Shown here: positions 1 to 25,406 of the stretch, one piece after another
How positions within the stretch are numbered: position 1 is the first letter of the stretch
How the letters are laid out: the number at the start of each line of letters is the position of its first letter
Assembly: GCA_036667875.1 (NCBI GenBank)
Contig: JAVWTD010000006.1
Span: 1 to 51,045 of the forward strand
DNA length: 51,045 bases
From: Bacilli bacterium
GTDB lineage: Bacteria > Bacillota_I > Bacilli_A > RF39 > UBA660
Direction of reading: 5' to 3'
Program-made: the position numbers and the translations under genes
Notes under the pieces: model-generated
What the model was told of the DNA's origin: nothing
The model's input: only the letters and a program-made list of their open reading frames with translations
Database searches by the model: none

Positions 1-300
1 AACAATCATTAAAATTATTAATATCAAATCAATGTTCCACGTGAAACATAAAGAACAATCATTAAAATTATTAATATCAAATCAATGTTCCACGTGAAAC
101 ATAAAGAATAATAATTAAAACTATTAGTGTTAAAACAATGTTCCACGTGAAACATAAAGAACAATAATTAAAACTATTAGTGCTAAAACAATGTTCCACG
201 TGAAACATAATCAAATCAAATCATATTAAATAATAATTTCTCAGGAAATAGAATTTAAAAAATATAATTAATTTAAATCAATGTTCCACGTGAAACATAA
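1..300. repeat. parS: Tandem repeat array carrying five parS sites (TGTTCCACGTGAAACA at 33-48, 86-101, 139-154, 192-207, 282-297)
   Basis: Five identical 22-bp cores CAATGTTCCACGTGAAACATAA match the Spo0J/ParB consensus TGTTNCACGTGAAACA. Start-to-start spacing is 53, 53, 53 and 90 bp, and the linkers are homologous. parA/parB are at 20056-21727. Confidence 0.95.
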
Positions 301-337
301 AAAAATAATAATTAAAAACGTTAGTATACAATAATAT

Positions 338-366
338 TTGCATAAAAATAATTATTGTTGTATATT
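338..366 (+). promoter_or_regulatory. sigma-A-type promoter for SRP RNA
   Basis: TTGCAT (338-343), 17 bp, TATATT (361-366), just before the RNA stem at 373. Confidence 0.65.
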
Positions 367-372
367 TAATAT

Positions 373-443
373 GCACAACATTTATGGTTGAATCAGGTCA
401 GAGTTGGAAGACAGCAGCCTTAAAACCCACTAAATGTGTGTGC
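373..443 (+). ncRNA. ffs: Small SRP RNA (4.5S type)
   Basis: CAGGTCAGAGTTGGAAGACAGCAGCC matches SRP domain IV (GGAA tetraloop, CAG/AGCAG internal loop). Closing stem GCACA-ACATTTA / TAAATGTGTGTGC is followed by a T tract. Located next to tadA/dnaX as in Firmicutes. Confidence 0.9.
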
Positions 444-480
444 TTTTTTATATCTAGGAGTGATACAAATTAATGATTTT

Positions 481-909
481 ATGAATGAAGCAATTAAAGA
501 AGCAAAAAAAGCTTTGAAACATAATGATATTCCTGTCGGAGCAGTTATAGTTAAAAATAATAAGATAATAGCAAAAGCTCATAATAAAAAGGAATTAAAA
601 AAATGTTCGACAAAACATGCTGAAATAATAGCAATTGAAATTGCGTGTAAAAAACTAAAAACTTGGCATTTAGATGACTGCGATCTTTATGTAACACTTG
701 AACCTTGTTTAATGTGTTGCGGTGCTATAATACAAAGTAGATTAAAAAATATATACTATGGAACTACTTCCAATAAATTTGGATATGTAAAAAGCATAGA
801 TAATGTTTTTGAAAATAAGAACAATTATAAACCTGAACATATAGAAAATTTAAATGTTATAGGTTGTTCTAAGTTATTAGTTGATTTTTTTAAAGATAAA
901 AGGAAATAG
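481..909 (+). CDS. tadA: tRNA adenosine(34) deaminase (start uncertain: ATG 481 or ATT 469)
   Basis: PVGAVIV, HAE and TLEPCLMC zinc-deaminase motifs; adjacent to ffs and dnaX. Confidence 0.9.
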   Translation: MNEAIKEAKKALKHNDIPVGAVIVKNNKIIAKAHNKKELKKCSTKHAEIIAIEIACKKLKTWHLDDCDLYVTLEPCLMCCGAIIQSRLKNIYYGTTSNKFGYVKSIDNVFENKNNYKPEHIENLNVIGCSKLLVDFFKDKRK

Positions 910-7762: not shown

Positions 7763-10700
7763 ATGTTTAATAATTTATTCAATGATATTGATGAAAAAAG
7801 CATAAGTGGACTGACTCCAGAACTTAAAGCTCTCTATGTAAGCAAATATTATAAAAAGAACAAAAAGAATGTAATTTTAATCACAAATACATTATATGAA
7901 GCTAATAACTTTTATCAAAACATTTGTAATTTTGAAGACAATGTTTTACTTTTTCCAATGGATGATTTTTTGACAAGCGAAGCACTTGCTATTTCACCAG
8001 AATTAAAAACTACAAGACTAGACACTATATTTAATTCTATAGATAATAGTCCTAAAATTATCGTAACAAACCTAATGGGATATTTAAGGTTTTTACCTTC
8101 AAAAACTATTTTTTTAGATAATATTATTACTATTTCTAAAAATGATGAGTTATCAAAAAAAGATTTAATAGAAAAATTATACAAAATAGGTTATTCAAGA
8201 AGTGTAATAATAAACGGAACAGGAGAGATATCTACTAGAGGTTTTGTAATAGATATATTTCCCATAAACTATCCCGACCCAATTAGAATTGAATTTTGGG
8301 GAGATACAATTGAAAGTATAAAGATTTTTAATATTGATACACAAAGAACAACAAAAAATATAGAAAAAATTATTATTAAACCAAATACTGAGTTTTTGAT
8401 TGAAAAAGATATTGATACGTTCGGATTAAAGCAAAGCGAATTAAATAAATATACAATTCCTTTAAATATCTCAACAATAGAAAAGTCAATTTGCTTTTTT
8501 AACAATTATGAACAAATTGAAAATAGTTATAAAAATTTATGTGAAGAGATTTTTAATTATAATATAAGCAATAACATGCCATCCGATCATGTTTATATGA
8601 ATGATTTTTATAAAATTACAAACTTCGAAGAAAATTATTTTAATGATTTTGATAATAAAATTAAAAAAGAAAATAAATCTATATACGATTCAAAAGAATT
8701 AGAACCTTTTATAGGTAGTATAGATTTAATTAACAAAAGATTAAATAAATATTTAGAAAAAAATAAAGTTATTATTTGTGCAAAAGATAGATTTAAAATA
8801 AATAAGATAATTGAAATGTTAAATAACAAAAAATTTATATTTACAAATGAAAATGATATTTATGAGAATCGAATAAATTTAATTATAAAAAAAATAAATA
8901 CTAGTTTTATAATAAAAGATTATATAATTATAAGTGAGAATGATTTATTTAATAAGAAAAAAGAAGTAAAGTATAATAATAAATTTAAATTAGGAACTAA
9001 AATAAGGGATATTAACAAATTAAATATAGGAGATTTTATAGTTCATTCTGGTCACGGAATAGGAATTTATAAAGGAATAAAAACATTACTAAAAAATAAT
9101 TTAAAAAAAGATTATATAATGGTTGAATACAGAGACAACGATAAATTATATATTCCTGTAGAAAAAATAGAATTTATTAACAAATACTCTTCGAAAGAAG
9201 GAGTGCAACCTAAATTAAATAAATTAGGAAGTTTAGAATGGGAAAAAACAAAAATAAAAGCAAAAAAAAGAATAGAAAATATTGCTGGAGAACTTCTTAA
9301 ACTTTACGCAATAAGGGAATCAACAAAAGGATTTCCTTATCCAGAAGATGGTAAAGAACAAATAGAATTTGAAAAAGAATTTTCTTTTAATGAAACACCT
9401 GATCAGTTAAAAGTAATTGAAGAAATAAAAAAAGATATGGAAAAGTCTACTCCAATGGACCGTTTATTATGTGGAGATGTTGGTTACGGGAAAACTGAAG
9501 TAGCCTTTCGTGCAATTTTTAAAGCCATTTTAGGTGGAAAACAAGTAGCAATATTATGTCCAACAACTATATTGTCAAACCAACATTATAATAACGCAAT
9601 TGAGCGTTTTAAATCATTTCCCATAAATATAGAAATTCTTAATAGATTTGTTTCTCCTCAAAAAACAAACATAGTAATCGAAAAAATTAAAGAAGGAAAA
9701 ATTGATTTGTTAATCGGAACACATAGAATATTAAGTGATGATATTAGTTTTAAAGATTTAGGTTTATTAGTTATTGATGAAGAACAAAGATTTGGAGTAA
9801 AACATAAGGAAAAAATAAAACATTATAAAAATAATGTTGATGTATTAACTCTCTCAGCAACTCCAATACCTCGTACTTTACAAATGTCTATGGTTGGAAT
9901 TAGAAATTTATCATTAATTGAAACGCCACCTATGAACAGACATCCAGTTCAAACATATGTTTTATCTGAAAACAAGCAAATAATAAAAGATGCCATATAT
10001 AAAGAAATATCAAGAGAAGGTCAATGTTTTATTCTATTTAACAACGTTAGTGAATTAGAAAGTAAAAGAATAGAAATTGAACATCTTGTTCCAGATGCTA
10101 AAATTATATGTGCACATGGAAGAATGACTAAAAATGAACTAGAAAATATTATGGAAGATTTTACTAATAGAATATACAATGTATTACTTTGTACAACTAT
10201 TATTGAAACTGGAATTGATATACCTAATACAAATACACTGATAATTTATGATGCAGATAGATTTGGATTATCACAATTATATCAATTAAGAGGACGTGTT
10301 GGTCGTTCAAATAAAATAGCATATTGCTATTTAATGTATAATAAATCAAAAGTATTATCAGAAATTGCCATTAAAAGATTGCAAGCGATAAAAGAATTTA
10401 CAGAATTAGGGAGCGGATTTTCTATAGCAATGAGGGATTTATCTATAAGAGGTGCTGGAGATATTTTAGGAAGCGAGCAGGCAGGGTTTGTTGACACCAT
10501 TGGTATAGAAATGTTTATGCAAATGCTTGAAGAAGAAATAAAAAGATTAAAAGGTATTCCGGTAGAAGAAAGAAAAGATTACAACCCGCTAATAGAAGTG
10601 GAAACTTCAATATCAAATAGTTTTGTAACAGATGAAGAATTAAAAATTGAAATACATAAAAAAATTAATTCTATAAATTCTGATAACTCTTTAAATAATA

Positions 10701-20055: not shown

Positions 20056-20841
20056 ATGGGTAAAATTATAGCTTTAGTAAATCAAAAAGGTGGTGTTGGT
20101 AAGACAACTTCAAGCATAAACTTAGCAGCAGCACTTGGAGTATTAAAAAGAAAAGCACTCCTTGTAGACTTAGATCCTCAAGGAAATTGTACGACGGGGC
20201 TTGGAATATCCAAAGGTGACTGTAAAAATAGCGTTTATGAAATGATGTTAGATAGAAGCACTCTAGAAGAAACTATTATTAAAACAAAATTTAAAAATTT
20301 ATCTTTAATACCAGCTTCTATAAATCTAGCGGGAATAGATTTCGAATTAATGGAAAAAAGTAGAGAAACAGCAGTTTTTAATAAAGGTGGACAGTTAAAA
20401 AAATATTTAGACGAAGCAAAAAGTAATTTTGATTACATTATAATAGATTGTCCCCCAAGTCTTGGTATTTTAACGACAAATGCATTAACGGCAGCAGATT
20501 CAGTCCTTATTCCAGTTCAATGTGAATTTTTCGCACTCGAAGGAATTGCTCAACTAGTAAACACAATTTTATTAGCTCAAAAAAATATAAATCCAAAATT
20601 AGATATAGAGGGTGTTTTACTAACAATGCTTGATAGCAGAACTTGCTTAGGCCTTGAAGTTGTTGAAGATATAAGAGGTTATTTTAAAGAAAGAGTTTAC
20701 GATACAATAATACCAAGATTAGTTAAAATATCTGAAGCACCAAGTCATGGAAAACCTATAATATATTATGATTATAATCATAAGGGTACAACAGCATATT
20801 TAGCTTTAGCAAAGGAAGTGATTTCAAGAAATGGAAAATAA
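20056..20841 (+). CDS. parA: ParA/Soj ATPase
   Basis: KGGVGKTT deviant Walker A, DLDPQGN, IDCPPSLG, EAPSHG. Confidence 0.97.
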   Translation: MGKIIALVNQKGGVGKTTSSINLAAALGVLKRKALLVDLDPQGNCTTGLGISKGDCKNSVYEMMLDRSTLEETIIKTKFKNLSLIPASINLAGIDFELMEKSRETAVFNKGGQLKKYLDEAKSNFDYIIIDCPPSLGILTTNALTAADSVLIPVQCEFFALEGIAQLVNTILLAQKNINPKLDIEGVLLTMLDSRTCLGLEVVEDIRGYFKERVYDTIIPRLVKISEAPSHGKPIIYYDYNHKGTTAYLALAKEVISRNGK

Positions 20842-21727
20842 AGTAATAGATAATAGAAAAAGAGCATTAGGTAGAGGTCTTGAACAATTATTTAATACTG
20901 AAAATTTAGATATTGACAGTATCGAAAAACAAATATATGAAACATCGAGTAATGAAGAAATTATAAATATTAGACTTGACGAATTAAGACCTAATCCCTA
21001 TCAACCAAGAAAAAAATTTAATGAGGAAGCTTTATCTGATTTAGCTGAATCAATTAAACTACATGGTGTTTTCCAACCAATAATAATTAAAAGAAGCATT
21101 AAAGGATACGAAATAATTGCAGGAGAAAGAAGATGCAGAGCATCAAAATTAGCTGGAAAAGAAACTATACCCGCAATTATCAGAAATTTTACAGATGAAC
21201 AAATGATGGAGATTGCATTATTAGAAAATTTGCAAAGAGAAAATTTAAGTGCTATCGAAGAGGCAATTGCTTATAGAACAATGATTGAAAGACTAAATTT
21301 AACTCAAGATGACTTATCAAAAAAAGTTGGTAAAAGTAGAAGCCATATTACAAATATTTTAGGTTTATTAAGATTACCAAATGAAATTCAACAAATGATA
21401 AGTAAAAATGAATTAACCATGGGACATGCAAGAGTTATAAGTAAATTAGAATCTGAAGAAGAAATGATAAATCTTGCTAAGCAAATAGTTGAAGGAAAAC
21501 TTCCAGTAAGAGAAACAGAAAGAATTTCTAACGATAACCAACTTAACAAAAAAGTTGTTCAAATAAGAAAACACAAAGAAAACTTAAATGAATATAAATA
21601 TGTAGAAGATTTACTAAGAGAAAAACTAGATACTAAAATTAAAATAAAAGAAAAAAAACTTGAAATAAGTTTTAGTAATATTAATGATTTAAATAGAATT
21701 TTAGAAATATTAAATATAAAGGAGTAA
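20831..21727 (+). CDS. parB: ParB/Spo0J partition protein
   Basis: ALGRGL, PNPYQPR, GERR.RA CTP-binding motif, ENLQRE, HTH. Confidence 0.97.
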   Translation: MENKVIDNRKRALGRGLEQLFNTENLDIDSIEKQIYETSSNEEIINIRLDELRPNPYQPRKKFNEEALSDLAESIKLHGVFQPIIIKRSIKGYEIIAGERRCRASKLAGKETIPAIIRNFTDEQMMEIALLENLQRENLSAIEEAIAYRTMIERLNLTQDDLSKKVGKSRSHITNILGLLRLPNEIQQMISKNELTMGHARVISKLESEEEMINLAKQIVEGKLPVRETERISNDNQLNKKVVQIRKHKENLNEYKYVEDLLREKLDTKIKIKEKKLEISFSNINDLNRILEILNIKE

Positions 21728-21731
21728 TTTT

Positions 21732-22526
21732 ATGATAGAAAAGATTTTAATGAAAGATGTTATATCACCTTTGATAATAGTTTTAATAGGAATTATTGTA
21801 TATATAATTTCAAAAAGAATAATAAAAAATGTATTTAAATTTAAATTTATTGGAGCAGATGAAAAAAGACAAAAAACAATTATGCTCTTATTTACAAATA
21901 TTGTTAAGTTTTTTATTATAGCAATTGTTTTTGTTTCAATTTTAGAAGTATATGGATTTGATACAAAATCATTATTAGCTTCATTAGGTGTATTTGCAGC
22001 CGTTATTGCTCTTGCATTACAAGATCTTTTAAAAGACTTTGTAGCAGGAATATCAATAATGCTTGAAGGACAATTTAGAATTGGAGATACTGTTACTATA
22101 GGTGCTTTCAAAGGAGAAGTTATTGCTCTTACTTTGAAATCTACAAGAATAAAAGCATACACTGGAGAAATAAAAATATTTACAAATAGAAATATCACAG
22201 AAGTAGTAAATCATACATTGGATTACTCACTTGCAATTGTAGATATTAACATAGATTATAATGCTGATATTGAAAAAACAGAAAAAGTTTTAAATAAATT
22301 ATGTGATCGCTTATCAAATGAAATAAAATTCTTAACAGGTCCTGTTCAACTATTAGGAATTAATGAAATAACTAACTATTCGATAGTTTACAGAATTACT
22401 GCTGATACTGAATCAATGAAACAATTTGAAATTCAAAGAAAAATATTAAGAGAAGCAAAACTAGAATTAGATAAAAACAATATAATTATACCTTACTCAC
22501 AAATGGTGGTTTATAATGGAAAGTAA
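21732..22526 (+). CDS. mscS: Small-conductance mechanosensitive channel
   Basis: Three TM segments, ALQDLLKDFVAG, FRIGD, MscS C-terminal region. Confidence 0.88.
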   Translation: MIEKILMKDVISPLIIVLIGIIVYIISKRIIKNVFKFKFIGADEKRQKTIMLLFTNIVKFFIIAIVFVSILEVYGFDTKSLLASLGVFAAVIALALQDLLKDFVAGISIMLEGQFRIGDTVTIGAFKGEVIALTLKSTRIKAYTGEIKIFTNRNITEVVNHTLDYSLAIVDINIDYNADIEKTEKVLNKLCDRLSNEIKFLTGPVQLLGINEITNYSIVYRITADTESMKQFEIQRKILREAKLELDKNNIIIPYSQMVVYNGK

Positions 22527-22704
22527 AGATTATAAATTAGGTAGCATTGTATTGATGAAAAAAGAACATCCTTGCGGTTACAATGAATGGGAAATTGTCA
22601 GAGTTGGAGCCGATATTAAAATAAAATGTAATTCTTGTAAAAGATGCATAATGATGAGTAGAGTAGAATTTAATAAAAAAATTAAAAAAATATTAACATA
22701 TTAG
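22516..22704 (+). CDS. DUF951 (YyzM-like) protein
   Basis: MKKEHPCG..W..RVGADIKIKC..C motif; usual neighbour of ychF. Confidence 0.88.
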   Translation: MESKDYKLGSIVLMKKEHPCGYNEWEIVRVGADIKIKCNSCKRCIMMSRVEFNKKIKKILTY

Positions 22705-22713
22705 GAGGAACGT

Positions 22714-24231
22714 ATGAGAAAGAAAAACAAACCAAAAAAAATGCTCGGTCCTGTTATAACTATGATGTTATTAACAATTATTGTTATTCTATCAAGTTCT
22801 TTCTTTTCTTTATTAGAAATTGATGCAGAAAAAACTGAAATAGTTAGAGGGTCTTTAGAAACATCGTTAATAACTGTAAAAAATGTTTTAACAAAAGATG
22901 GAGTAAAATATATTTTTAATAATATAGTAACTAACTTACAAATTTTTGAGCCATTATTTTTATTAATTATATCTTTAACAGCAATAGGAATTGGAGAAGC
23001 TAGTGGTTTGTTCAAAGCTATATTTGAACCAATGAAAAAAATAAATAACAAATTTTTAACTTTTCTAACACTTCTTGTTGGGATAGTAAGTTCTTTTTTT
23101 GGAGACTATAGTTACGTCTTTTTACTTCCAATGGTTGCAATCTTATACCAATATCTTGGGAGAAAACCTTTATTAGGTATTCTTACAATATTTATTGGAA
23201 TTACAATGGGATACGGCACAGGTTTTATATATAACTATGATGAAATAATAATTAGTGGACTAACAGAAAAAGCAGCCTCACTTGATGTTGACAAAAATTT
23301 TGTTTATCTATTAAAATCAAATATATATATAATGTTTTTTAGCACACTTATTCTTTCAATAGTAGGAACTTCAATAATACATACATTTTTAGATAAAAAA
23401 GTTCCAAAAAGCAATATTGAAAACGATGATAAATTAATCGTTTCAAAAAAAGGCTTACGTTATAGTAATATAGCATTTATAATTATGTCATTAATTATTA
23501 TATTTATGATAATACCTGGACAAAAAAGTGCTGGATTTTTGCTAGGAGAAGGAAATTCTTATGTTGAAAAATTACTAGGTCCAACTTCACCATTTATATC
23601 AGGATTATCTTTTATTCTATTAATTATAATTATGGTATGTAGTTTTATATATGGTAAAATTTCGGGAAATATTAAAAACAGTAATGAATACAGCGTAGGT
23701 TTATCTAAAAACTTTGAAAATTTAGGATATGTGTTTGTATTATTATTTTTCATGTCATTACTTGTTTCAATATTTGAATGGACAAATCTTGGTCAAGTAA
23801 TATGCAGTAAAATAATAGAATTAATAACTATATTGCCTTTCTCAGGATTACCAGTATTAATTACTTTCTTTGTTGGAGTAATATTAATGACTATATTAAT
23901 ACCATCAGTAACGACAAAATGGGAATTAGCATCTCCTTTAATGGTACCATTATTAATGAAATCAAATATTACACCTAATTTTACACAATTTGTCTTCAGA
24001 ACTGCTGACGGAATAGGGAAATGTTTTACACCTTTATTTCCTTATTATATAATAACATTAGCATTTTTAGAAAAATATAATACAAAGGAAAACAATAAAA
24101 TTACAGTATTTGGAACTTTAAAAATGATTATGCCAACATTATTATTATTTACTGTTCTTTGGTTAGTAATAATATTATCATGGCATATGCTAGGTATTCC
24201 TTTAGGTCCTGAAACATATTCAATATCTTAA
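22714..24231 (+). CDS. AbgT-family transporter
   Basis: Multi-TM; GIGEASG, D-Y-V-L-P, KW..SP, R.AD..TP, W..LGIPLGP resemble AbgT/YdaH. Confidence 0.75.
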   Translation: MRKKNKPKKMLGPVITMMLLTIIVILSSSFFSLLEIDAEKTEIVRGSLETSLITVKNVLTKDGVKYIFNNIVTNLQIFEPLFLLIISLTAIGIGEASGLFKAIFEPMKKINNKFLTFLTLLVGIVSSFFGDYSYVFLLPMVAILYQYLGRKPLLGILTIFIGITMGYGTGFIYNYDEIIISGLTEKAASLDVDKNFVYLLKSNIYIMFFSTLILSIVGTSIIHTFLDKKVPKSNIENDDKLIVSKKGLRYSNIAFIIMSLIIIFMIIPGQKSAGFLLGEGNSYVEKLLGPTSPFISGLSFILLIIIMVCSFIYGKISGNIKNSNEYSVGLSKNFENLGYVFVLLFFMSLLVSIFEWTNLGQVICSKIIELITILPFSGLPVLITFFVGVILMTILIPSVTTKWELASPLMVPLLMKSNITPNFTQFVFRTADGIGKCFTPLFPYYIITLAFLEKYNTKENNKITVFGTLKMIMPTLLLFTVLWLVIILSWHMLGIPLGPETYSIS

Positions 24232-24252
24232 AAGATGAATTTCATCTTTTTC
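24230..24252 (+). terminator. Terminator after the abgT-like gene
   Basis: AAAAGATGA / TCATCTTTT stem plus Ts. Confidence 0.55.
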
Positions 24253-24253
24253 T

Positions 24254-24282
24254 TTGCTTTTTTATAGTATATTATGTATAAT
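24254..24282 (+). promoter_or_regulatory. sigma-A promoter for ychF
   Basis: TTGCTT, 17 bp, TATAAT. Confidence 0.6.
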
Positions 24283-24305
24283 AAAATCAATAAGGAGGAA
24301 TTATT

Positions 24306-25406
24306 ATGAGTTTAACAGCAGGAATAGTAGGGTTACCTAATGTTGGGAAATCAACATTATTTAATGCTATTACTAAAAAAAATATATTAGCCGCTAATTA
24401 TCCATTTGCAACAATAGATCCAAATGTTGGAATGGTTACTGTACCTGATAAGAGACTAGAATTTTTACAAGATTTATATCAAACACAAAGTGTTATTCCA
24501 ACTACTTATGAATTTACTGATATTGCAGGATTAGTAAAAGGTGCTTCAAATGGGGAAGGACTTGGAAATAAATTTTTATCACACATAAGAGAAGTAGATG
24601 CAATAGTAGAAGTAGTAAGATGCTTTGAAGATAAAAATATAATACATGTAGAAGATAGTGTCGACCCAATAAGAGATATAGAAATAATAAATATTGAGTT
24701 AATGCTTGCAGATTTAGAAGTAGTTGAAAACCGATTTAATAGGATTGGAAAAAAAGCAGCCTTATCGAAAGACAAAGAAGTTATTAAAGAGGTTAGAATT
24801 TTAAATATTCTAAAAAATAGTTTATTAAAAAATGAACCAATTAGAAAATTAATATTCGACGAAGAAGATGCAAAATATGTTAAAGCATTCAATTTTCTTA
24901 CCGGTAAACCCATTATATATATGGCGAATATTAGTGAAGAAGATTTATTAAATGACGGGAACTTATATGTTGAAAAAGTTAAAGAATATTCTACGAAAGA
25001 AAATTCTAAGACAATAACTGTATGTGCAAAAATAGAATCTGAATTAAGTGAATTAAATGAGGAAGATAAAAATAGTTTCTTAAATGAATTAGGTATTGAA
25101 AACAGTGGATTAGATAAATTAATACATGCCACCTATGACCTTTTAGGATTAGCAACATACTTTACAGCAGGTGTTCAAGAATGCCGAGCATGGACATTTA
25201 AAAAAGGAATGAAAGCCCCAGAATGTGCCGGAATAATTCATACCGATTTTCAAAAAGGATTCATAAGAGCAGAAGTAATGAGTTATGATGAATTAGAAAA
25301 ATGTGGAAACGAAAAAAACGTTAAAGAAGCAGGAAAAATGAGATTAGAAGGAAAAGAATATATAATGAAAGACGGAGACATTTGTCATTTTAGATTTAAT
25401 GTTTAA
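24306..25406 (+). CDS. ychF: Redox-regulated ATPase YchF
   Basis: GLPNVGKST, ANYPFATIDPN, DIAGLVKGAS, TGS end DGD..HFRFNV. Confidence 0.97.
   Translation: MSLTAGIVGLPNVGKSTLFNAITKKNILAANYPFATIDPNVGMVTVPDKRLEFLQDLYQTQSVIPTTYEFTDIAGLVKGASNGEGLGNKFLSHIREVDAIVEVVRCFEDKNIIHVEDSVDPIRDIEIINIELMLADLEVVENRFNRIGKKAALSKDKEVIKEVRILNILKNSLLKNEPIRKLIFDEEDAKYVKAFNFLTGKPIIYMANISEEDLLNDGNLYVEKVKEYSTKENSKTITVCAKIESELSELNEEDKNSFLNELGIENSGLDKLIHATYDLLGLATYFTAGVQECRAWTFKKGMKAPECAGIIHTDFQKGFIRAEVMSYDELEKCGNEKNVKEAGKMRLEGKEYIMKDGDICHFRFNV

Follow-up and report, generated by a model that had tools for sequence, protein, structure and literature searches.

The stretch analysed here, hereafter the window, comprises the first 51,045 bp of contig C6 (JAVWTD010000006.1) from a small, AT-rich Bacilli bacterium (GCA_036667875.1; 66 contigs, 1.26 Mb, 91% complete). 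At its left end lies part of a tandem array of parS, i.e., the site bound by the partition protein ParB. On a second contig, C1, the array continues leftward to gyrA. It is the sole centromere candidate of this genome, beside oriC, at a locus that serves in that role throughout the family (f1) to which the genome belongs.

The tandem array and its origin setting

The 16-mer TGTTCCACGTGAAACA occurred exactly five times in the window, at the places where the original prediction had put five ParB sites (Table 1), and nowhere beyond positions 33-297. A search allowing up to three mismatches returned 10 matches, i.e., the same five sites read on both strands; shuffled sequences gave 0.30 matches on average and never more than 2. 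The 53-bp period predicted for the first four sites was borne out by their positions and by Tandem Repeats Finder (TRF), which reported a period of 53, 4.0 copies and 94% matches over positions 1-210. The 22-bp core shared by the sites (CAATGTTCCACGTGAAACATAA) and its 18-bp palindrome could be read directly in the sequence. The linkers were also as described, in that the partial first linker is identical to the second, while the third and fourth differ at two bases. The reading of these as ParB sites is supported by their sequence, which is that of consensus parS. Save for a free fifth base, TGTTCCACGTGAAACA equals the consensus given in PMC10197239 and PMC7383237, and the 16-bp inverted repeat of the sites on C1 and C6 matches TGTTNCACGTGAAACA (nine exact copies of TGTTCCACGTGAAACA and one of TGTTTCACGTGAAACA).

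The array had been expected to run left of the window, and C1 does end with five more sites, at 78021 (TGTTTCACGTGAAACA) and at 78073, 78126, 78179 and 78232 (TGTTCCACGTGAAACA), in steps of 52 and 53 bp. This series starts right after the gyrA stop codon, and the final 31 bases of C1 are identical to positions 1-31 of the window. With P denoting a site and A', A, B, C and U the linker types, the order is P-A'-P-A-P-B-P-C-P-A(partial) on C1 and (partial A)-P-A-P-B-P-C-P-U-P on C6. Because these two orders cannot be merged further, correct contigs would imply an array of ten sites as a minimum. The join is backed by synteny, as gyrA, the parS cluster, tadA and dnaX are contiguous in relatives. 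With C1 and C6 in register, the array consists of head-to-tail direct units carrying one inverted-repeat site each, i.e., the repeat structure of a plasmid-type centromere, as also detected by TRF.

All sites in the genome with no more than one mismatch lie in the array, within about 0.5 kb. Elsewhere in the 1.26 Mb there were three matches with two mismatches each, and none with a reversed-motif control. As a general repeat control, a whole-genome TRF run was uninformative, yielding only 10 repeats with a period of at least 26 bp and at least 2.8 copies. Two of these were the array itself, while at least six of the others have multiple-of-three periods, suggesting coding DNA. When metagenome contigs were searched for exact copies of one 53-nt unit, there was no match, although this or near-identical genomes may be excluded from that search.

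Could a short-read assembler have broken or inflated the repeat, so that the true locus has fewer sites? The 66-contig assembly does break exactly within the array, at the 31-bp overlap, and those of many relatives break there too (including G003, G018, G053, G180 and G404). However, C1 and C6 share the unit order A-B-C with junctions (C-P-A and A-P-A) that cannot be merged, and repeat collapse usually reduces copy number rather than raising it. In addition, like arrays occur inside long contigs, i.e., 16 sites at 34 bp in G213, about 1.11 Mb along its own contig C1, and 23 sites at 42 bp in L316, a 20.9-kb metagenome contig whose flanks match f1. We therefore regard an assembly artefact as very improbable.

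It also seems highly unlikely that the palindromes serve some purpose other than ParB binding, i.e., as Noc-like sites, gyrA terminators, a control element of SRP (signal recognition particle) RNA, or repeats like those of CRISPR (clustered regularly interspaced short palindromic repeats) or MITEs (miniature inverted-repeat transposable elements). A Noc-type protein is indeed encoded 16 kb to the left of the array, and in congeners the first site after gyrA, together with a T run, looks like a terminator. However, the sites are the exact parS consensus, and the Noc-like protein has the Q/K/R residues tied to the Noc site, not to parS (PMC7383237). In the present genome, AAAG rather than a T run comes after the units, and the spacers are mutually homologous at a locus that is fixed across f1. 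The terminator reading was rejected because positions 1-600 contain no terminator-like site, and a reading as a DnaA-box cluster because no DnaA boxes (up to one mismatch) were found in positions 1-1000. The CRISPR/MITE reading was rejected on the sequence itself.

The array sits within the origin region, where rnpA is followed by dnaA-dnaN-comK-like-recF-gyrB-gyrA and then by the array. In the last 20 kb of C1, the minus strand carries the Noc-like gene, gidB, gidA, trmE, jag, yidC and rnpA, and the plus strand dnaA, dnaN, a ComK-family gene, recF, gyrB and gyrA. The GC skew changes sign at dnaA (around position 10,000 of locus L161, on C1), and DnaA boxes with up to one mismatch are present both upstream of dnaA (eight) and between dnaA and dnaN (four). 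Taken together, the position of dnaA, the skew switch and the boxes place the start of the array 7.5-9.4 kb to the right of oriC, i.e., 7.5 kb from the dnaA-dnaN box cluster and 9.4 kb from the upstream cluster. To the right of the array follow SRP RNA, tadA, dnaX, ybaB, recR, holB and more genes up to ftsH, and then parA and parB.

Table 1. Features of the window that are discussed in the text
Feature	Coordinates	Strand	Remarks
53-bp tandem parS array, window part	1..210	+	partial linker, four units and start of a fifth; TRF
parS TGTTCCACGTGAAACA	33..48	+	exact match; site 6 of at least 10 if C1 joins C6 directly
parS	86..101	+	exact match
parS	139..154	+	exact match
parS, final one of the 53-bp series	192..207	+	exact match
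Unique 74-bp linker between 9th and 10th sites	208..281	.	no homology to the repeated linkers
Noc-binding-site-like element ATTTCTCAGGAAAT	236..249	.	2 mismatches to ATTTCCCGGGAAAT
parS, 90 bp past the preceding site	282..297	+	exact match
Small SRP RNA (ffs/scr), right neighbour of the array	364..456	+	Rfam RF00169, 53.7 bits, E 5e-9
tadA (tRNA adenosine deaminase)	481..909	+	Pfam MafB19-deam, dCMP_cyt_deam_1; with dnaX, the conserved right flank
parA (Soj-type ATPase)	20056..20841	+	Pfam AAA_31 1.7e-66, CbiA, ParA
parB, predicted array binder, 298 aa	20831..21727	+	Pfam ParB_N, HTH_ParB

One parS locus with changing content in family f1

Exact parS was present in 220 of 251 sampled f1 genomes (0.4-1.7 Mb in size), and in every genome with listed sites these were confined to about 2.6 kb on one contig, or to two contig ends. 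In all 59 f1 loci that were fetched, the cluster lay in the gyrA-tadA gap, beside GyrA and/or TadA/DnaX (GyrA in 47, TadA in 51 and DnaX in 48), the loci without one flank gene being those cut by a contig end. The original prediction had set the array against a background in which chromosomal parS sites of Firmicutes are usually scattered; for f1 this background fails, one tight cluster between gyrA and tadA being the norm. The content of the locus varies: the f1 genomes searched had from one to at least 18 sites, in clusters that were either irregular or perfectly regular, with linkers unrelated in sequence and with spacings or periods that range between 28 and 156 bp, the largest (155/156 bp) being found in G005.

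The two congeners have one or two exact sites (two each when one mismatch is allowed), 46 and 81 bp apart. As these two sites stand at the same place, the array of ten is a recent expansion in the present lineage. Growth by tandem duplication, as had been proposed, is supported, the array having been born by recent duplication of the 53-bp unit in the lineage of this species. The idea of a compact centromere of variable copy number is likewise supported by the strong contrast between one or two exact sites in the congeners and at least ten here. Across 13 regular arrays, 10 of the 208 core columns were variable, as against 100 of the 410 linker columns (Fisher P = 9e-11), in a comparison where sites were recognised by their core and all units were consecutive at constant period. 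The 16-bp cores are thus under constraint while the linkers drift.

In its organisation the array resembles sopC of plasmid F, in which a 43-bp unit is directly repeated 12 times, every copy having a 16-bp inverted repeat to which SopB binds (PMC3177203). Copy number in the sopC family runs from 3 to 17, with periods kept at 43-45 bp, and that paper takes the near-integer number of turns to mean that dimers sit on one face; for SopB on sopC, it proposes in-phase bends or contacts between adjacent dimers that are under torsional constraint (PMC3177203). Like sopC, the present array has a tandem-repeat layout, a conserved core and a constant period, with a copy number that varies. Unlike centromeres of the sopC kind, which lie on a plasmid next to their own sopAB/parAB operon, it belongs to the chromosome, where it occupies the gyrA-tadA interval at a distance of 19.8 kb from parAB, and its site is canonical parS, not the SopB site TGGGACCACGGTCCCA. 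A further difference is that f1 has many periods, from 28 to 156 bp, with unrelated linkers.

Comparison with the parS/Spo0J-Soj-SMC system of Bacillus subtilis shows the same 16-bp site, a ParB closest to Spo0J, the presence of ParA, SMC and ScpA, and an origin-proximal location within a B. subtilis-like origin synteny. However, the sites of B. subtilis are spread over tens to hundreds of kb (-68, -63, -49, -9 and -304 kb; PMC8357415). Here, by contrast, they stand head-to-tail within about 0.5 kb, and parAB lies at +20 kb, apart from a Noc-type gene on the gidB side.

The parS clusters of Myxococcus xanthus, Corynebacterium glutamicum, Caulobacter crescentus and Pseudomonas aeruginosa are kilobases long, with non-repetitive DNA between the sites. 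As in those species, several origin-proximal parS make up one centromere region in the present genome; unlike their clusters, it is a true tandem repeat with only tens of bp between sites. M. xanthus has 22 clustered chromosomal parS (PMC3899335) and P. aeruginosa four near oriC (PMC4368675).

According to PMC3177203, tandem repeats are not the arrangement in which chromosomal parS occur. In a search of the literature by phrase (the Livny 2007 census lying outside its scope), there was no description of natural chromosomal tandem parS arrays; what it returned on tandem, array or repeat parS were synthetic arrays, plasmid centromeres and kilobase-scale clusters only. In vitro, B. subtilis ParB binds to the synthetic 7x and 39x parS arrays, from which sliding clamps are then released (PMC8299390); these are man-made, and spacing was not varied to test phase. 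The parts of the present system (parS, ParB, ParA and SMC) are known, and their layout is like that of plasmid centromeres such as sopC rather than that of the dispersed or loosely grouped parS of model species. The census of tandem arrays and the quantisation of their phase are new. What emerges is that a family with small genomes carries plasmid-style tandem centromeres at a fixed chromosomal locus, which offers a natural spacing series for testing how ParB dimers cooperate, how a nucleation complex is built and how centromere strength evolves.

Two further metagenome contigs also carry closely spaced sites. One (2,026 bp, G+C content 0.39; loci L311 and L312) is taken up almost entirely by about 32 parS at 43-bp steps, i.e., the period of sopC, although some steps are twice as long (87 bp). 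On the other (L277, G+C content 0.54), parS are 22-23 bp apart, leaving 6-7 bp between the 16-bp sites.

Helical phase of the regular arrays

A period of 53 bp corresponds to 5.05 turns of 10.5 bp, i.e., it is close to a whole number of turns, as in sopC, and the original prediction had proposed that such a period would load ParB on one face of the DNA. In 401 f1 genomes, we looked for exact sites in groups of three whose two gaps fell in the same period window, the windows covering 26-118 bp in total. Matches were obtained in 42 genomes at 26-56 bp, 21 at 57-87 bp and 30 at 88-118 bp, the latter two including multiples of shorter periods. An array was counted as regular when adjacent spacings agreed within 1 bp, and each genome contributed one value, with same-genus duplicates collapsed (G232 with G003, G404 with G255, and G290 with G095). 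Matches with spacings differing by more than 1 bp were dropped (G056, G065, G094, G155, G204, G235, G244, G257, G323, G336, G365, G181, G160, G275, G410, G316 and most of the 88-118-bp matches), as were multiples of a shorter period (G213, G186, G259, G237, G074, G053, G214, G285 and G042) and G281, for which the match was not listed.

In the 26-56 bp range, one large class lay at 34-38 bp, with further groups at 40-43 bp and at 51.5-55 bp. A preference for whole turns at periods of 40 bp or more was written down as a prediction before the 57-87 bp range was searched. The periods found there were 61, 62.3, 63, 63, 63, 63.3, 63.75, 70 and 74 bp (mean cosine of the helical phase 0.735, P = 5e-4), and the five newly seen arrays, from five genera, all lay at 63-63.75 bp (P = 2e-5 if independent). 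Before the 88-118 bp range was searched, peaks were expected at 94.5, 105 and 115.5 bp, and the search gave 95, 100.5, 105, 105.8, 106.7 and 115 bp (P = 0.025). This became P = 0.003 with the addition of four looser arrays, and P = 0.064 on removal of one array known beforehand.

Taken together, the regular arrays of 40 bp or more (n = 29) had a mean cosine of 0.607 at 10.5 bp, with P of about 5e-6 against both uniform and smoothed null distributions; without the present genome the mean cosine was 0.594. Their periodogram had a sharp peak at 10.5 bp, and 20 of the 29 lay within 0.15 turn of an integer (expected, 30%). They cluster at 42, 53, 63, 74, 95, 105 and 115 bp, i.e., at 4, 5, 6, 7, 9, 10 and 11 turns. 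When all regular arrays of 26-118 bp were included without any cut (n = 43), the mean cosine was 0.25 (P = 0.0125). Statistically, therefore, whole helical turns are preferred by regular f1 arrays once the period reaches 40 bp, and the 53-bp array falls in the five-turn class. In a small set of metagenome contigs with family-like flanks or low G+C, partly picked by G+C afterwards, periods of 42, 62, about 84 and 85 bp fit whole turns, and one of 82.5 bp (7.86 turns) was borderline.

The period might nevertheless be neutral, i.e., a chance pair of sites amplified by unequal recombination, with the clustering in f1 reflecting shared descent or chance. A constant period would then follow simply because any tandem array has one, and the review PMC7333895 reports that a single parS is enough for segregation in several species. 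Against this account stand the sharp 10.5-bp peak in the periodogram and the success of the predictions made for the two later ranges. Shared descent is also hard to reconcile with the unrelated linkers and the scatter of same-period genomes on a GyrA tree. Consensus linkers of arrays with the same period showed no similarity beyond that of shuffled sequences (z up to 2.7), the exceptions being one same-genus pair (z 4.4) and one other pair (z 3.2), and the 53-bp array of G018 has an unrelated linker. On a quick GyrA C-terminal tree of 35 genomes, from which 12 of 47 were left out (no fragment of 230 aa or more), the 63-bp class required three changes for three rows and the 53-bp class three for four; the nearest neighbours of the present genome carry no array. 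Three different array periods (42, about 64 and about 106 bp) occur within a single genus, g54. Finally, the four multi-member period classes (41.6, 53.3, 62.8 and 105.8 bp, i.e., 3.97, 5.08, 5.98 and 10.08 turns) are all within 0.08 turn of an integer, whereas the off-phase classes at 45.5, 48, 70 and 100.5 bp are each a single array.

Several results weigh against a general phase rule, and with it against a same-face function of the 53-bp period, and a number of them favour a neutral period. In the 26-56 bp range on its own there was no enrichment for whole turns (n = 29, mean cosine 0.05, P = 0.39), and the cut at 40 bp was post hoc, having been chosen after that range had been examined. 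Fourteen of the 43 regular arrays, those of 28-38.5 bp, are off-phase (mean cosine -0.48). With one value per period class (11 classes), the mean cosine was 0.345 and P was 0.077. Spacings of 40-123 bp in irregular f1 clusters were unphased (n = 120 from 48 genomes, mean cosine 0.03, P = 0.31), so that any constraint would act on regular arrays only. Closely spaced parS triplets occur in many phyla (at least 122 stretches in one-genome-per-species contigs); among the matches listed, those from other phyla favour 37-39 and 44-49 bp (mean cosine -0.25), with no preference for integer turns. GC-rich metagenome arrays cluster near 58-62 and 66-72 bp. The phase of the present array also depends on the helical repeat assumed, because its ten sites span 0.43 turn if 10.5 bp per turn is taken but 0.90 turn if 10.4 is; the nine tandem sites alone would be perfectly aligned at 10.6 bp per turn and spread over nearly half a turn at 10.4.

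The predicted phasing is thus supported by comparison for regular f1 arrays of 40 bp or more, which lie at multiples of 10.5 bp, and does not extend to the 34-38 bp class, to irregular clusters or to other phyla. A neutral period remains an unlikely explanation in our judgement. We think it probable that the array of at least ten tandem sites next to gyrA is the only centromere of this chromosome, and that its 53-bp period belongs to a five-turn class in which sites face the same side of the helix. Because f1 periods of 40 bp or more fall at whole turns, it seems that a regular array is more readily formed or retained if consecutive ParB dimers are on the same face. Such placement may affect the nucleation complex, either because bends add up or because contacts between adjacent dimers are under torsional constraint. 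More tentatively, and with somewhat greater doubt than confidence, the f1 centromere could be viewed as a fast-evolving satellite, whose arrays are reborn at a fixed locus, expand to 10-23 copies and survive mainly at whole-turn periods. On that view, ParB dimers at adjacent sites would build an ordered nucleation complex aligned on one face, such as a solenoid or a torsionally constrained dimer-dimer lattice, rather than acting as independent loading sites.

An anti-phase reading of the triplets from other phyla was considered but is not adopted; among the matches listed, there was no sharp periodogram peak over the only three turns that they cover, and linker clustering merged the AT-rich arrays into one cluster of 18. 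Triplets with 39-bp steps fell in one linker cluster of 44 loci (L041 plus 43), of which most of the named ones, among the matches listed, are from Collinsella.

ParB, the Noc-type protein and neighbouring elements

The original prediction had placed parAB about 20 kb from the array; Pfam searches confirmed both genes, and the distance is 19.8 kb. The best solved relative of the window ParB is B. subtilis Spo0J (6SDK, E = 1.3e-60), and it contains the GERRxRA motif, as GERRCRA. Its residues at the four specificity positions defined in PMC7383237 are R, I, R and G. As R173 and G201 of Caulobacter are described there as invariant in ParB, the R and G at the equivalent positions mark these as parS-type specificity residues. 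The SMC hinge and ScpA were both found in the genome above Pfam cut-offs. Judging from what is known of this protein family, the 298-aa ParB, encoded 20 kb downstream, would nucleate at each site and close into cytidine triphosphate (CTP) clamps that slide outward, forming a complex that would be moved by ParA and would load SMC-ScpAB. Confining loading to one compact locus may also keep SMC complexes from colliding with each other (PMC8357415).

The only other ParB-family gene in the genome encodes a 718-aa protein on C1 (L161:1477-3633, minus strand), beside gidB and 16 kb to the left of the array. Its greatest similarity is to Noc (7NG0, E = 2e-60), and its specificity positions (Q, K, N and R) follow the Noc pattern. 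It lacks the first 25 or so residues of Noc, the alignment beginning at about residue 27 of the Geobacillus Noc chain, and its approximately 500 extra C-terminal residues had no Pfam match at E = 1e-5 or better. The position next to gidB is also that of Noc in B. subtilis, in which the gene order is noc-soj-spo0J. In the present genome, by comparison, parA-parB is 20 kb to the right of the origin and the Noc-type gene to the left, beside gidB. In the window, parA-parB is followed by mscS, an AbgT transporter and ychF (20056-25406).

The element ATTTCTCAGGAAAT in the unique linker is one of two matches to ATTTCCCGGGAAAT with two mismatches, the closest genome-wide, the other being at C26:8731; a reversed-motif control gave one. 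The corresponding gap of both congeners has retained this element, with one copy in one congener and two in the other. Noc-binding sites with zero or one mismatch lie among or next to the parS sites in L220 (G023), L243 (G012), L227 (G111), L229 (G392), L242 (G265), L239 (G348), L224 (G369) and L247 (G188). In G012 and G023 there is one Noc site per repeat unit, so that parS and Noc sites alternate.

Promoter-like hexamers in positions 1-600, which include the SRP RNA, were at chance level (6 found, 5.5 expected). Between dnaN and recF, a gene of the ComK family (PF06338, E = 1.8e-30) occupies L161:13547-14047 on C1. In both congeners (L019 and L020), the gyrA stop codon is immediately succeeded by the first parS and then by 6-8 T, resembling an intrinsic terminator. 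At that place in the present genome, ATATGTTGAAAAACATAT followed by nine T, at C1:77990-78015, resembles a shortened parS hairpin.

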